Shown here: positions 5,107-9,868 of the stretch, one piece after another
Position numbering within the stretch: position 1 is the first letter of the stretch
Layout of the letters: each line of letters starts with the position of its first letter
Source of the DNA: Bacilli bacterium
GTDB taxonomy: Bacteria > Bacillota_I > Bacilli_A > RF39 > UBA660
Length of the DNA stretch: 64,000 nt
Direction of reading: 5' to 3'
Assembly: GCA_017477845.1 (NCBI GenBank)
Contig: JAFUTR010000010.1
Span: 11,282 to 75,281 of the forward strand
The notes under the pieces: model-generated
Seen by the model: only the letters and a program-made list of their open reading frames with translations
The model's database searches: none
Told to the model about the DNA's origin: nothing
Made by a program: the position numbers and the translations under genes

Positions 5107-5423
5107 TTATGCTATAACCCCCAAAAAAGTTGCATACCCTGTTACTGGGATTAAACCTATTACAACAGATAAATTTAATACTGCTTGAATAATAATTTGA
5201 AATACTAATCCAAAAGCTAAATACTTTGAAAATTTATCTTGACTATTAATAGCAATCTTAAATCCTAGATATAAAAATGCAAAGAATAGAGAGACTACTA
5301 TCAATACTCCTAAAATTCCAAATTCTTCACTTATAATAGAAAAAATAAAATCAGTTTGTGGCTCTGGAAGATAAAATTGCTTTTGTCTAGATTTTAAAAA
5401 TCCCATACCTAATAATCCACCTG
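5107..5423 (-). pseudogene. ftsW: FtsW/SpoVE (SEDS) gene fragment encoding the conserved motif-rich central portion (broken at both ends)
   Basis: The translation ...SGGLLGMGFLKSRQKQFYLPEPQTDFIFSIISEEFGILG...GLIPVTG carries SEDS hallmark motifs (G-GLG-S-QK--YLPE--TDFIF). The frame is open upstream to the CAGGTGG junction at 5417-5423. It ends early after VTG (YATFLGVIA*) and so lacks the expected PLPFISYGGSS tail. Confidence 0.8.
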
Positions 5424-5444
5424 AATTATGTTTTTTTGCGATTA

Positions 5445-6923
5445 TTAAATCATTTTAAAATTAAAATAAATATCTAATGTTTTATCCTGATGTATTTCTA
5501 TTCTTTTTATTAGTTTATTAATAAATTGATTATTATTTATATTAATTAAACTATTAACAACTTCTTCTTTAATGTCTATTGGTTTATATGAATAATTAGA
5601 TATTTCTTTTTTTAATAAATCTATTTCATTATTAATTTTAATAAAAAGCCTATTAAACATTTCTTCATCAATTTTATTATTTAATTTGTCTAAATACAAA
5701 TTATCTAAATTGTTTTTATTATTCTCTATTTTTATATTTAATTCTTTAGTATTATTATTTTTATTATTTATTCTAATTTTTTTATATAACAGATTTATAT
5801 CTATTTTATCTAATTCCTTCTTTAATTGTGATAGAACATTTTTTTCAACATTCAAATAATTATTAGAGTGAGATGAACACAGTTTAAGTTTTGAATATTT
5901 TTTATAAGTGTTACACATTAAATACTTTTTATTTTTATTTTTTTGGATTATTAATTTCTTTTTACATTCTCCACAATATAAAACGCCATCAAGTATAGTT
6001 TTATTTTTTTTATTTGATTTAGTATTACCATTTAGTTTTAATAATCTATTAACTTCTTCAAAGTCTTTTTCATCGATTATTTTCTCATGTGTATTTTTAA
6101 TTATAATCCAATCATCTTTTTTATTTAATTTTAATTTTCTTATTTTATAGTTGATTTTATTTCTTCTATTTTGAACTAGATTACCTGTATATAATTCGTT
6201 TTTCAAAATAGTCTTTATAGTTGTTCTATTCCAACATCCTAAAGTATTTTTTTTTATGTTTCTAAATAGTGCTGGTGTTTTTATTTTTTCTTCATTTAGT
6301 ACATTAATAATTTTATTTATTGAATATGTTGATAAAGCCATGTCAAAAATCCTTTTTACAATAGTTGCCTCTTCTTTATTTATTATTAAATGATTTTTAT
6401 CTTTAGGATCAGTCATATATCCAAATGGTGTACACCCACCTACCCATTTTCCATTTAACTGTTTTGTTCTCAAAGCTGCTTTAATTTTTTTTGAGTTTTC
6501 TCTTGAATAAAAGTCATTAATTATTGTTTTAAATGGTATAAATTCGTTATTTGAATTATCAAGTAATGTATCTATATTATCAAGAATAGATATAAATCTT
6601 ACATTGTTTTCTGGAAACCACTTTTCAATGTATTTACCTGTTTCTATATAATCTCTCCCAAGACGAGATAGATCTTTTACTATTACCATATTTATTTTAT
6701 TATTTTTTATATCTTCAATCATTTTGTTAAATCCAGGTCTATTGAAATTAGTTCCAGTATATCCATCATCTATATAAATATCATATACATTATAATTATT
6801 ATCTTTTGAATATTTTACTAATAATTCTTTTTGATTAGAAACACTTTCGCTATCAGTATTATTTTTTATTTCATCTTCTTTTGAAAGTCTAATATACAGT
6901 CCACATTTATAGTTATTATTCAT
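5445..6923 (-). CDS. Large serine recombinase (resolvase/invertase N-domain, recombinase domain and C-terminal zinc ribbon)
   Basis: The N-terminus GLYIRLSKED…VIVKDLSRLGRD is the resolvase catalytic domain with the nucleophile Ser in RLS. Cys pairs (CGECKKKL…C) form a zinc ribbon. At 492 aa it fits the family size. Confidence 0.85.
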   Translation of the reverse strand: MNNNYKCGLYIRLSKEDEIKNNTDSESVSNQKELLVKYSKDNNYNVYDIYIDDGYTGTNFNRPGFNKMIEDIKNNKINMVIVKDLSRLGRDYIETGKYIEKWFPENNVRFISILDNIDTLLDNSNNEFIPFKTIINDFYSRENSKKIKAALRTKQLNGKWVGGCTPFGYMTDPKDKNHLIINKEEATIVKRIFDMALSTYSINKIINVLNEEKIKTPALFRNIKKNTLGCWNRTTIKTILKNELYTGNLVQNRRNKINYKIRKLKLNKKDDWIIIKNTHEKIIDEKDFEEVNRLLKLNGNTKSNKKNKTILDGVLYCGECKKKLIIQKNKNKKYLMCNTYKKYSKLKLCSSHSNNYLNVEKNVLSQLKKELDKIDINLLYKKIRINNKNNNTKELNIKIENNKNNLDNLYLDKLNNKIDEEMFNRLFIKINNEIDLLKKEISNYSYKPIDIKEEVVNSLININNNQFINKLIKRIEIHQDKTLDIYFNFKMI

Positions 6924-7094
6924 TGTATTTTTCCTCTATATTATGTTCAATTATATTTTTTAGTAAATGATAAATATCATTTTTTTCATCATAAAAGAGT
7001 CTAATTTTTTCATTCATAAAAAATCCTCCTAATAGATTTTATTAAGAGGAATAAAAAATATACAAAAAAGCGTAACTTTAAGTTACACTTTTTC

Positions 7095-7895
7095 CTACCA
7101 TGATCCTGACCAATTAACTTGAGCAACGCTAATTGCATCATATTGACTTGATATACTACCTGTATGTACAATTCCTGCTGTACCAATTACTTCATGCATT
7201 AACGCGTTTAGTAACCCATTCGATGATGTTGTTGCGTGTGCATAATCCCCACATGCAATTTGATTTATGATAGTTGATGATGCATCTGTTTTTTCGACAT
7301 CAAAATAAAATGTTTGCTCTAAGGCAGTAACATTTGTTGATGTTGGTAGCCTAAATGTTGCACTTGCACCATTTGAAAATATTTGTGGAACATGTGTTGT
7401 AGAAGTATGTTGAGTTCCGCTTTGGGTATACTTTTGAGTAAAATATAAAGTATTATTTTTAGGCTTCACAGATGCATAAAATCCAATACCAATAATGTCA
7501 TATTGTCTTGTAGCTGGGATAACTTTCCAAAACAAAATATTTCTATAGCGATAATAACTTCCATTTGCAAGAAGGTATGTTGTCATTTCTTTATATGTTG
7601 TTTCAACAGTTGTGCTTGCATTGATGGAATAATTATTAATAGCGTTTGGGTCAACTGCATCATATACTATTTTGGGAATTTCGTATGTAATTGTACTTAA
7701 TACTTCAGGATCACCATTTGTACTTTGAGTACTTGTTCCGCTATTGCTATAAACAGTTACAGTTTTATAATATTTTGTTGTTTCTCCCACTACTTCAAAA
7801 CCATCTTCATCAATGTCACCTACTTGTGCAAAAACAAAATTTGGTGTCAAAAAAAATGCAATGGCTAAACATAAAAAGTATTTTAAATTTTTCAT
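7095..7895 (-). CDS. Secreted Thr/Ser-rich protein (element cargo)
   Basis: The internal start MKNLKYFLCLAIAFFLTPNFVFAQ is a signal peptide with a GGAGGA RBS. Many NxT/S sites and T/S runs follow. Confidence 0.45.
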   Translation of the reverse strand: MKNLKYFLCLAIAFFLTPNFVFAQVGDIDEDGFEVVGETTKYYKTVTVYSNSGTSTQSTNGDPEVLSTITYEIPKIVYDAVDPNAINNYSINASTTVETTYKEMTTYLLANGSYYRYRNILFWKVIPATRQYDIIGIGFYASVKPKNNTLYFTQKYTQSGTQHTSTTHVPQIFSNGASATFRLPTSTNVTALEQTFYFDVEKTDASSTIINQIACGDYAHATTSSNGLLNALMHEVIGTAGIVHTGSISSQYDAISVAQVNWSGSW

Positions 7896-7970
7896 TTTTC
7901 CTCCTTTCATTTGTAATATTACATTTTTTGATTTGTAAAGTAGTAACAAAAATGAGATTTTTTAAATTCT

Positions 7971-8672: not shown

Positions 8673-8750
8673 ACTACTACCACCTACAAAATAATACTTA
8701 AAATATACTACTAAAAAGAAAGAATACATTTGTTGTTAACTTCTTGAAAA

Positions 8751-8785
8751 CAGCAAAAAAGATGTTGAAAAGATATTTCAACACC
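8751..8785 (-). terminator. Rho-independent terminator
   Basis: A GTTGAAA/TTTCAAC stem is followed by TTTTTTG on the minus strand, downstream of the 54-aa ORF. Confidence 0.5.
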
Positions 8786-8950
8786 TTATCTATTTGGATT
8801 AAAACTAATGATATGATAGTCTTCAAATTTATACCTATCCGGTATTTCTTGAAATTCTTTATCTTTTTGCTTAGTTAACATCTTAACTGTAGCATAAAAA
8901 GATTTTGATTCATTTTCATTATCATAATCATCATATCGATAAAATCCCAT
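8786..8950 (-). CDS. Small acidic 54-aa protein (candidate recombination directionality factor/excisionase or regulator) at the element edge
   Basis: It has a near-perfect RBS (GGAAGGAGGAATAAAT then ATG). It translates to MGFYRYDDYDNENESKSFYATVKMLTKQKDKEFQEIPDRYKFEDYHIISFNPNR. A rho-independent terminator follows at 8751-8785. It is below the ORF-track length cutoff. Confidence 0.45.
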   Translation of the reverse strand: MGFYRYDDYDNENESKSFYATVKMLTKQKDKEFQEIPDRYKFEDYHIISFNPNR

Positions 8951-9083
8951 ATTTATTCCTCCTTCCTAGCTTTTTAGAGCATAATTAAAAAGTAGCAAAA
9001 TATATCAAAAATGCCACTCTCTTAAAATGAGAATCATATCTCTTTTTTTGAGAATTATTGTAATTGGTACCTAAAAACATAAA

Positions 9084-9868
9084 CCACCTGGCCCAATAGC
9101 GTATAACGACTGAATTATTTGAAAACCTGTACCTAATGGATCACTCCAAGGATTTAAAAAAGAAGTTATTCTGTCCATTCTATAAGGTGCAATAATAATT
9201 AAAATAGTTATACCTATTACGCCTAGTAATCCTAATCCTAAAAAGAACTTTATATTAACTCCTGCTATAAATAAAAGTGCTAATACACTTACAACTATAA
9301 TCATACCTGTTCCAAAATCTGGTTCTAACATTATTAAACCAAATGTTAGAAAAAGTACAGCAAGTATAGGAATAACTCCTTTTTTTAAATTCTTAATAAA
9401 CTTATTAGAGTTTGATAAATATTTACTTGTTAAAATAATAATACTAATTTTAGTAAATTCACTTGGTTGAATACCGAATGGTCCAATTGAAAACCAACTT
9501 CTACTTCCGTTTCTTACACTTCCAATACCTGGTATTAAAACAATGATTAAAAGAATAATGCATACAAAAAATATTTTAGAACTATTCTTATAATAAAAAC
9601 TTATTTTTATTTTATTTAACAAAAATATTAAAAAAAGCCCTATTAAAAAAAATAATAATTGATGCTTCACATATTTAAATGGATCGTTGAACTTATAATT
9701 TGCCCATATACTAGATGATGAGTATATCATTATAATTCCAAATATAATTAGAATTAATGATACAAATAATAAATATTTACCTAGATTTTTATTCATCATA
9801 TCACCTAATATATTGTATAAAAATATGATAAAAAAAAGAACACAAAGTTCTTTATAACCATACTCCAA
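9084..9868 (-). pseudogene. ftsW: FtsW/SpoVE (SEDS) N-terminal fragment of about 260 aa, cut off at the element junction
   Basis: Motifs RSWFSIGPFGIQPSEFTKI, LEPDFGT, YRMDRITSFLNPWSDPLGTGFQIIQSLYAIGPGG follow the FtsW/RodA consensus. The frame runs into the element and stops 3 codons later (…GGL CF*). It overlaps mraY by 17 nt in dcw-cluster order. Confidence 0.85.

Follow-up and report, generated by a model that had tools for sequence, protein, structure and literature searches.

The 64,000-nt stretch of contig JAFUTR010000010.1 analysed here (hereafter, the window) carries on its minus strand a class B penicillin-binding protein (PBP) gene, then mraY, and then a gene of the shape, elongation, division and sporulation (SEDS) family, and the SEDS gene is in pieces. 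The initial annotation had described this gene as split by a 3.66-kb cassette with a large serine recombinase, and our analysis supports that description, since SEDS homology breaks at both junctions and the two sides join along the Pfam profile PF01098; all features of the split gene lie on the minus strand. The N-terminal part had been placed at 9084..9868 with about 260 codons. The N-terminal SEDS sequence is indeed found there, but although the open reading frame (ORF) spans 9071..9868(-) with an upstream TTG, its likely start is the ATG at 9796, so that only residues 1-237 of the protein are present. From this ATG the product has 241 aa, matching the call in public assemblies, and its terminus reads GPGG-LCF-stop. 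The continuation begins GGLLGMGFLKSRQKQFYLPEPQTDFIF..., 3.66 kb downstream of the N-fragment and within 5107..5423(-), as had been proposed; its SEDS homology, however, stops at residue 331 (position 5137) and does not cover the rest of the gene.

The same 7-mer, CAGGTGG (CCACCTG on the plus strand), occurs at both breakpoints in identical codon phase, which confirms an observation already made in the initial annotation (Table 1). Because this 7-mer has seven copies in the window, the repeat alone is not rare; judged from the sequence, its weight lies in its position exactly at both breakpoints of SEDS homology and in its recurrence in other genomes. When the cassette is deleted and one copy of the repeat is kept, the joined protein reads AIGPGGLLGMGF, the same as intact orthologues, which have ...AIGPGGLLGMGFLKS... 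at the junction. The joined protein covers positions 5-326 of the 356 in PF01098 (FTSW_RODA_SPOVE; E = 7e-100) and aligns gap-free with intact 362-aa orthologues at 78-79% identity, in agreement with the SEDS consensus claimed for it, and the solved FtsW and RodA structures are matched by the SEDS protein (phmmer, E down to 3e-73). An origin of the fragments from two different paralogous SEDS genes, the case named as contradicting a split, was ruled out: both fragments align to adjacent parts of the same orthologues with similar identity, so that the alignment supports a single gene. No other SEDS match was found among the window proteins.

The break falls inside a non-hydrophobic stretch of about 60 residues between hydrophobic segments 184-202 and 270-288, and the predicted crossover lies within CCA/GGTG/G, at codons 236-238, in the extracytoplasmic loop that precedes the PEPQTDFIF motif. 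The attL and attR sites share the short identical core CAGGTG(G) without a long direct repeat; the predicted attB is GCTATTGGGCCAGGTGGATTATTAGGTATGGGA and the predicted attP contains AAAAAAACATAATTCAGGTGGTTTATGTTTTTAGGTACC. The reconstructed attP arms show imperfect dyad symmetry, as expected for serine-integrase sites, with the arm motifs AAAAACATAA in the window element, ATCGC/GCGAT in the related elements L016 and L100, and ATCGCCATC in L259. The core junction CCA/GGTG/G is also present in L016, L097 and L100, with the variant CCT/GGTG in L259. In a sister lineage (P0242-P0246; L111, 1904..2821) the stop codon at the junction is gone, and the N-fragment ORF is extended by 20-65 codons of element sequence.

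Table 1. Features of the split SEDS gene, its cassette and its immediate neighbours in the window.
Feature	Position	Strand	Basis
Class B PBP, SpoVD-like, presumed SEDS partner	11031..12938	-	NCBIfam TIGR02214 spoVD_pbp; Pfam PBP_dimer, Transpeptidase, PASTA
mraY, intact, between the PBP gene and the SEDS gene	9852..10838	-	Pfam Glycos_transf_4, MraY_sig1
SEDS (SpoVE/FtsW-type) N-fragment, residues 1-237, with a 4-codon junk tail (GLCF) and stop	9071..9796	-	Pfam PF01098
attL core CAGGTGG, left end of the element/gene junction	9084..9090	-	breakpoint repeat
54-aa ORF, followed by a terminator-like hairpin at 8759..8787	8786..8950	-	ORF call
XRE-family helix-turn-helix protein, 233 aa, one hydrophobic segment and an uncharacterised C-terminal domain	7971..8672	-	Pfam HTH_3, E = 4e-14
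Secreted all-beta protein, 266 aa, signal peptide	7095..7895	-	cargo
Terminator-like hairpin (7064..7094), then a conserved block and a predicted hairpin (7024..7050) sequestering the Shine-Dalgarno sequence of the 33-aa ORF	7024..7094	-	sequence folding and conservation
33-aa acidic ORF overlapping the recombinase start, candidate accessory or directionality factor	6916..7017	-	conserved position and motif
Large serine recombinase, 492 aa	5445..6923	-	Pfam Resolvase PF00239, Recombinase PF07508, Zn_ribbon_recom PF13408, all above cut-offs
attR core CAGGTGG, 21 bp 3' of the recombinase stop codon	5417..5423	-	breakpoint repeat
SEDS middle fragment, residues 238-331, with the PEPQTDFIF motif	5137..5416	-	alignment to intact orthologues
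Second junction (site 2, codon 331), junk tail YATFLGVIA and stop from the conjugative-element end	5107..5136	-	homology end
Near end of the integrative conjugative element	1..5136	-	continues past the left window edge

The SEDS gene is broken a second time in the window. Its homology ends at ...IPVTG, after which the ORF closes with a few codons contributed by an integrative conjugative element, and neither the SYGGS-type motif ([SGT][YFW]GG[ST]), which is absent from the whole window, nor the last 30 profile positions of PF01098 are present. The part of this element inside the window codes for a 231-aa ORF, a replication-initiator-like protein, ParA, ParB, a 238-aa ORF and a HEPN protein, and it is extended in L005 (10503..20444) by genes for a SpaA-type adhesin, a sortase, a single-stranded DNA-binding protein, a NikA-like protein, a relaxase (PF03432), a DUF3801 protein and a type IV secretion system coupling protein. 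Relaxase, coupling protein and partition/replication genes form one block abutting the chromosomal junction, which identifies the block as a conjugative element; plasmid records match only its ParA gene. The public contig ends inside this element, and its far end and own recombinase are not on the recovered contig. In other assemblies of the same species a 119-aa C-fragment (P0248) is identical over the 90 shared residues (MGFLKS...IPVTG) and has the normal end ...VTLPFLSYGGSSLL..., with the SYGGS part present. Since a strain with P0248 has the normal C-terminus, the conjugative element is a recent, polymorphic addition. The initial annotation had claimed that precise excision of the cassette restores the reading frame, and this holds across the junction but not for the complete gene: because the conjugative element truncates it at codon 331, removing only the cassette leaves the gene of this strain incomplete, and from the arrangement of the locus two elements would have to leave.

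This second junction, ACAGG/G (IPVTG/VTLPF), is itself a second hot spot of the SEDS gene. It is occupied in L027 (3752..6500) by a 2.75-kb element with a RelB/ParE-like pair and a recombinase, and in L077 (10921..14006) by a recombinase with a GltD-like oxidoreductase, and two more contigs (L043 and L058) terminate there. The recombinases of L027 and L077 belong to a different clade (37% identity). The 30-aa tail beyond site 2 has no preceding start codon, and therefore insertions at this site truncate the SEDS protein.

The recombinase of the cassette has the YIRLSKED motif, and its catalytic residues R12, S14, R87 and R90, together with four cysteines, are invariant across 120 relatives. 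Among NCBIfam models XisF fits it best, with 118 bits where the cut-off is 375; it is not a close relative of SpoIVCA, and annotated phage integrases reach at most 42% identity to it. All eight relatives for which the genomic context was fetched (52-100% identity) adjoin an SEDS fragment that starts at the same codon: P0121 (100%; window and L001-L006), P0122 (84%; L015), P0124 (57%; L016, the same as L069), P0125 (57%; L100), P0128 (56%; L097), P0134 (52%; L101-L103), P0208 (60% over the shared region; L259) and P0181 (about 61%; L262-L263). The recombinase gene ends 20-110 bp 5' of the SEDS fragment in each of these contexts, and the N-fragment ends at the same codon wherever the contig extends far enough. 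Among relatives of 50% identity or less (145 loci in Joint Genome Institute (JGI) metagenomes and IMG/VR, found by a recombinase profile scan), none adjoins a SEDS gene; the JGI and IMG/VR scans also returned no circular or empty-site form. These contexts indicate that the attachment site of the clade is this SEDS codon, hereafter site 1, and that insertion is site-specific and recurrent. The cargo is of one type (54-aa ORF, XRE protein and secreted protein) in the window, L016, L100, L259 and L262, while L015 is a short contig showing only the secreted protein gene and the recombinase. The element in L097 carries MarR, two ABC exporters and a kinase-like gene, and the larger one in L101 a small resolvase and a group II intron reverse transcriptase. 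Every element has a start codon 0-5 codons from the junction, and its recombinase gene reads into the C-fragment, with no terminator-like site between the two in the window; in L016, an element-encoded ATG overlaps the recombinase stop (ATGA), giving MNSGGLLGMGF.

The cassette was also said to encode an XRE-type membrane regulator and a secreted protein, and both are borne out by the HTH_3 match, the hydrophobic segment and the signal peptide. The XRE proteins of sister elements are 34-60% identical. The secreted protein had no match in Pfam, NCBIfam or PHROGs, though 162 homologues were found; its AlphaFold2 model reaches a predicted local distance difference test score of 90, and adhesin/pilin Ig-like folds were matched only weakly (template modelling score <= 0.33). 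Together the two genes form a widespread module that also occurs away from recombinases, namely downstream of an intact SEDS gene in L020 (8009..12466), in ordinary chromosomal contexts in L104-L107, and beside holin, CHAP-endolysin and RHS genes in L108-L110. A promoter scan was uninformative (56 sites against 50.5 expected).

The 54-aa ORF at the far end of the cassette, acidic in the window, had been put forward as a directionality factor, but it is weakly conserved and is basic in other elements (isoelectric points 9.3-9.9), and it is probably the wrong ORF for this role. The sister lineage retains it with an in-frame indel, but L016 and L100 share only its C-terminal IPxRYxxxEY motif, and it is absent from elements with other cargo. 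The candidate that we propose is the 33-aa acidic ORF at the recombinase start, of which the motif INIFFDD..L..II.N and the position are kept in six aligned elements, including ones with other cargo. Beyond these six, a copy with a TTG start is seen by eye in L259 and a 31-aa ORF was called at the same position in L262, so that its length ranges from 31 to 34 aa across elements; scans of Pfam, NCBIfam and PHROGs matched it to no known family. The window element, L111, L015 and L016 have in common the conserved block TTTGTATATTTTT..CCTCTTAATAGAATCTATTAGGAGG. Conservation of the stretch at 6916..7094 extends to elements with recombinases of no more than 57% identity.

A subfamily of these recombinases has lost part of its structure. 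Among the best 120 recombinase clusters, 24 are 405-415 aa long and have no coiled-coil insert in the zinc-ribbon domain; they miss only residues about 370-460 of the window protein and keep all catalytic and zinc-binding residues. These forms (among P0159..P0220) have diverged down to 52% identity among themselves, and in both contexts inspected (L259 and L262) that SEDS codon is again occupied by the same cassette, whose attP arms are well preserved in L259. The Listeria LI integrase engineered to be without its coiled-coil performs intramolecular attL x attR recombination without a directionality factor, while intermolecular attP x attB recombination is inefficient (PMC5499577). The 24 natural relatives are without exactly that insert, although their behaviour is extrapolated from the engineered mutant and the window recombinase itself retains its coiled-coil. 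A long-lived subfamily of this kind fits a recombinase that may be kept for excision rather than insertion. Since the coiled-coil-less forms also keep the 33-aa ORF, a role of the small ORF purely via the coiled-coil is argued against.

Divergence between the window and the sister lineage with the same cassette (L111 and L015) was measured by the Nei-Gojobori method as synonymous divergence (dS) and the ratio of nonsynonymous to synonymous divergence (dN/dS). The interrupted SEDS gene had dS 0.46 and dN/dS 0.105 in its N-fragment and dS 0.67 and dN/dS 0.043 in its C-fragment (against L015), next to dS 0.65 and dN/dS 0.015 for the flanking MraY. Within the element, the values were dS 0.63-0.75 and dN/dS 0.09-0.11 for the recombinase, 0.69 and 0.43 for the XRE protein, 0.43 and 0.24 for the 33-aa ORF, and 1.2-1.4 and 0.13-0.14 for the secreted protein. 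In close pairs of species with an intact SEDS gene, dN/dS ranged from 0.04 to 0.09 in the N part and from 0.008 to 0.09 in the C part, and both interrupted fragments are therefore as constrained as intact orthologues. That element dS equals flanking host-gene dS matches the prediction of vertical co-inheritance since the common ancestor. A plain pseudogene was ruled out, as the fragments have no frameshifts and kept dN/dS at 0.04-0.10 over a dS of about 0.5-0.7 while interrupted. In the 90%-identity cluster of the N-fragment, all members (6 distinct sequences on 16 contigs) are interrupted at GPGG.

The gene pair resembles SpoVD and SpoVE. The adjacent PBP scores 703 bits against NCBIfam TIGR02214 spoVD_pbp, above the cut-off of 688 for a SpoVD equivalog, and the best model of the rejoined SEDS protein and its intact orthologues is SpoVE (429-438 bits; cut-off 448.8), followed by FtsW (398-406 bits; cut-off 337.5). 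Some relatives (L041, L074, L076 and L077) carry two class B PBPs in tandem; the window PBP is orthologous to the second of these, which we take to be the spoVD position in the pbpB-spoVD arrangement of Bacillus. The window also contains a SpoIID-domain protein, below its family cut-off, and at 17311..18886 a SpoVID-like (SPOCS and LysM) and YsxE-like (E = 5e-17) gene pair, likewise below family cut-offs; this pair hints at retained spore-coat genes. Relatives of the host include Firmicutes bacterium CAG:460, and CAG-460 is a genus of the RF39 family UBA660 (PMC13155120). RF39 and its sister orders have been predicted to form spores with a reduced gene set (PMC10868615).

The presumed partner gene is interrupted as well. 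Small serine-recombinase elements split the SpoVD-like PBP gene of related species at three recurring sites, in addition to the two in the SEDS gene. The site at about residues 291-298, in the STFK motif, is used in L067 (2487..5416; a Fic-domain protein and a 542-aa recombinase) and L023; the site at about 346-348, in the SCN motif, in L262 (1..1162), L043 and L051 (76..1452), with contigs starting there in L037 and L042; and the site at about 412-415 in L043 (1..6518; AbiEi/AbiEii, a GNAT acetyltransferase, a phosphoesterase and a 553-aa recombinase), and the contigs of L028 and L044 begin there. Wherever such an element was seen with its recombinase gene, that gene occupied the 3' end and was directed into the downstream part of the PBP gene. 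The PBP gene is intact in 30 species loci, and mraY is split in none of the 50 related species loci that hold it. The PBP and SEDS genes, repeatedly split yet under selection and flanking the never-hit, essential mraY, thus behave like genes that may be dispensable in growth and needed at another stage.

Taken together, our results lead us to favour, with modest confidence, the explanation that the cassette interrupts a spoVE-type gene in the manner of skin, in RF39-like bacteria predicted to form spores, and that the gene is used after excision. The insertion has a constant anatomy, is site-specific and has diverged together with its host, and the small ORF, the recombinase and both pieces of the gene are under purifying selection. 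Excision probably rejoins the two halves, as is known for other interrupted sporulation genes; we propose this excision, its timing and the dispensability of the gene in vegetative growth as an explanation of those observations. A small integrative element has been placed by its large serine recombinase at a fixed codon of the SEDS gene, which would code for the SpoVE-type partner of the SpoVD-type PBP in genome-reduced RF39-like gut Bacilli, and in the lineage of the window the element has been inherited vertically over a long time. The recombinase, possibly aided by the 33-aa ORF, would recombine attL with attR and rejoin the halves in a cell without descendants, most plausibly the sporulating mother cell, while the germ line keeps the element. 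SpoVD and SpoVE would then build the spore cortex in the mother cell. The timing step is drawn by analogy with skin/sigK, SP-beta/spsM and gin/gerE, and the conjugative element that was inserted later at codon 331 would also have to leave. The suggestion in the initial annotation of a programmed, skin-like element rather than a random disruption agrees with the site-specific recurrence, the long residence and co-divergence, the selection, the conservation of the recombinase and the SpoVD/SpoVE-like pair, but no excision product appeared among assembled proteins. A collection of about 15 billion proteins contains the fragments but none of the rejoined proteins for the window species (whether or not the conjugative-element tail is included), L111/L015, L016, L100, L097 and L259.

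Several further observations weigh against a developmentally excised spoVE. Neither an excised junction nor a circular form was found in assembled proteins and contigs, and the region 5' of the recombinase operon is not assignable to a sporulation sigma factor in DNA this AT-rich. The SEDS protein falls just under the SpoVE cut-off, yet lies above that of FtsW (406 vs 337.5 bits). In the window, ftsA-ftsZ is followed by ftsK and not by spoIIGA-sigE-sigG, and related complete genomes are only about 1.3 Mb. A denser SEDS tree, read without bootstrap values, nests an intact lineage among the carriers. Monophyly of the carrier hosts, suggested by a first neighbour-joining tree that grouped them, was not upheld by this denser tree; the element must have been gained or precisely lost more than once, and a single ancestral insertion is claimed only for the window and L111-L015 pair. 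Finally, spoVD has been reported as reduced or absent in RF39 (PMC10868615), and for this reason the PBP/SEDS pair of the window might be the sole pair, needed for division; the supplement of that study has no ftsW, rodA or spoVE entries.

The foremost competing explanation, which we regard as unlikely, is ordinary mobile-element parasitism of a redundant gene, in which the conserved motif would be a mere attachment site, another SEDS protein or a class A PBP would make up for the loss, excision would have no programmed role and the recombinase would be selected only through its horizontal spread. Such parasitism would suit the varying cargo (ABC exporters, toxin-antitoxin pairs, a conjugative element), the presence of two elements within one gene in the window, the occurrence of the site-1 insertion in only about 1/65 related species representatives, and a recombinase tree that is star-like and not clearly congruent with the host tree at depth. 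However, a permanently broken redundant gene should decay, whereas these fragments have no frameshifts and evolve at dN/dS 0.04-0.10, and the dS of the element equals that of the flanking host genes. An empty-site allele is not known in any carrier lineage, and the coiled-coil-less recombinases have persisted and diversified.

It seems rather less likely than parasitism that the split SEDS and class B PBP pair is the only septal synthase of the cell. An essential divisome gene would then exist only in pieces in the germ line, and either the elements in the conserved motifs would be heritable DNA switches or the split SEDS protein would reassemble from two polypeptides. The second of these mechanisms, taken by itself, supposes that the halves still work when assembled in the membrane, with the N-fragment expressed from its native promoter and the C-fragment both co-transcribed and translationally coupled with the recombinase, and that the insertion is nearly neutral; we find it quite doubtful. 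It draws on the position of the break in the loop between two hydrophobic segments, on the recombinase gene reading into the C-fragment with no intervening terminator-like site in the window, and on the start codon within 0-5 codons of the junction in all elements, with the ATGA overlap in L016, and it would account for selection on both fragments and for the missing excised alleles. The native Met and the AGGTGG sequence are not evidence of adaptation, because intact genes have both. Two working polypeptides would nevertheless leave the conservation of the recombinase unexplained, coiled-coil-less forms included; the stop of the N-fragment is not conserved, with 20-65 junk codons in the sister lineage; and such assembly would be impossible for site 2, where the 30-aa tail has no start, and for the cuts of the PBP within its STFK and SCN motifs.

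A reversible switch on the sole divisome SEDS gene is improbable. In such active lysogeny, the element would alternate between integrated and excised states in growing cells and thereby gate cell-wall synthesis or division, with the XRE regulator and the secreted protein as the sensor. It has precedents in the comK prophage of Listeria and in SpyCIM1 in mutL, and would agree with a SEDS score above the cut-off of the FtsW model and with a membrane-anchored XRE regulator and secreted protein being the commonest cargo. A non-replicating 3.7-kb circle, however, would be lost at division, coiled-coil-less recombinases should re-integrate poorly, and no empty sites are seen in assemblies; elements with unrelated cargo use the same site, and the XRE and secreted protein pair also occurs far from recombinases. 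That the source is a metagenome-assembled genome raises the question of an assembly artefact or chimeric contig, but this is a negligible prospect, given that independent assemblies made from several samples by different pipelines (ENA, Logan, NCBI) have the same junctions and that at least six other species show the identical anatomy with diverged sequences.

Elsewhere in the window, an 868-aa type IV coupling-protein homologue, a staphylococcal-nuclease-like gene and a bacterial PH-domain gene lie beside holA (57274..60974) and may be the remnant of another conjugative element. A C39-peptidase ABC exporter and a 144-aa ORF directly 3' of ftsA (47801..50294) resemble a bacteriocin-type export locus. 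At 32909..38945, a HerA-like ATPase (597 aa) adjoins a 1373-aa protein in which DUF285, a domain family originally described from Mycoplasma, is repeated six times.

Intervening elements are known to be excised from the sporulation genes sigK, spsM, spoVFB, spoVR, gerE and yabG, from the heterocyst genes nifD, fdxN and hupL, and from comK. The cassette resembles the skin elements of sigK (SpoIVCA; Bacillus subtilis, Clostridioides difficile and others) in that a large serine recombinase element lies in a coding sequence whose ORF is restored by precise excision, only the recombinase is common within the family while cargo differs, inheritance is vertical and the host gene stays functional. Skin elements have been reported to share only the recombinase and to differ in cargo (Galperin and colleagues, bioRxiv 10.1101/2022.02.25.481979). 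Unlike skin, the cassette targets a SEDS polymerase gene and not a sigma factor gene, it has 3.66 kb compared with 14.6-48 kb in C. difficile and B. subtilis (bioRxiv 10.1101/2022.02.25.481979), its recombinase is not close to SpoIVCA, and its proposed excision would take place in an uncultured RF39-like host for which sporulation is only predicted. The gin element in gerE of Bacillus cereus ATCC 10987 (GirC and GirX; PMC5595907) likewise is without phage genes and has a recombinase, a separate accessory factor and a short junction consensus, but it has three recombinase genes and a GirX active in vitro, where the cassette has one recombinase, a candidate 31-34-aa ORF and another target. SP-beta in spsM (SprA and SprB; PMC4191935, PMC5499854) is likewise a serine integrase element, in its case in a mother-cell gene; its mobility and its developmental excision use the same att sites, and in this respect it is comparable to the conjugative element at site 2; in contrast to the cassette, which has neither phage genes nor an assignable promoter, SP-beta is a full active phage and SprB has known sporulation promoters. 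The fdxN element of Anabaena is excised from its gene by the large serine recombinase XisF in terminally differentiated heterocysts, and XisF is the best-scoring NCBIfam model for the window recombinase, although at a score far under the family cut-off and in another phylum with another kind of differentiation.

The initial annotation knew of no described intervening element in ftsW or spoVE, and this stands: full-text literature searches brought up no described case of a serine-recombinase element or intervening element within ftsW, spoVE, another SEDS gene or a PBP partner, and a survey of gene-disrupting islands mentions neither ftsW nor spoVE (PMC7192596). Here, a whole recombinase clade is dedicated to one codon of a spoVE/ftsW-type gene, and the two-gene module has at least four further hot spots, each of them at one of its most conserved catalytic motifs. 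If the pair were the only divisome synthase, the finding would be far stranger. If excision is developmental, coiled-coil-less serine recombinases would be candidates for excision-specialised enzymes that are independent of a directionality factor, which would be of interest for genome engineering. The skin paradigm would then reach the spore-cortex synthase and, with it, the uncultured RF39-like gut bacteria, for which such excision would be indirect evidence of sporulation.

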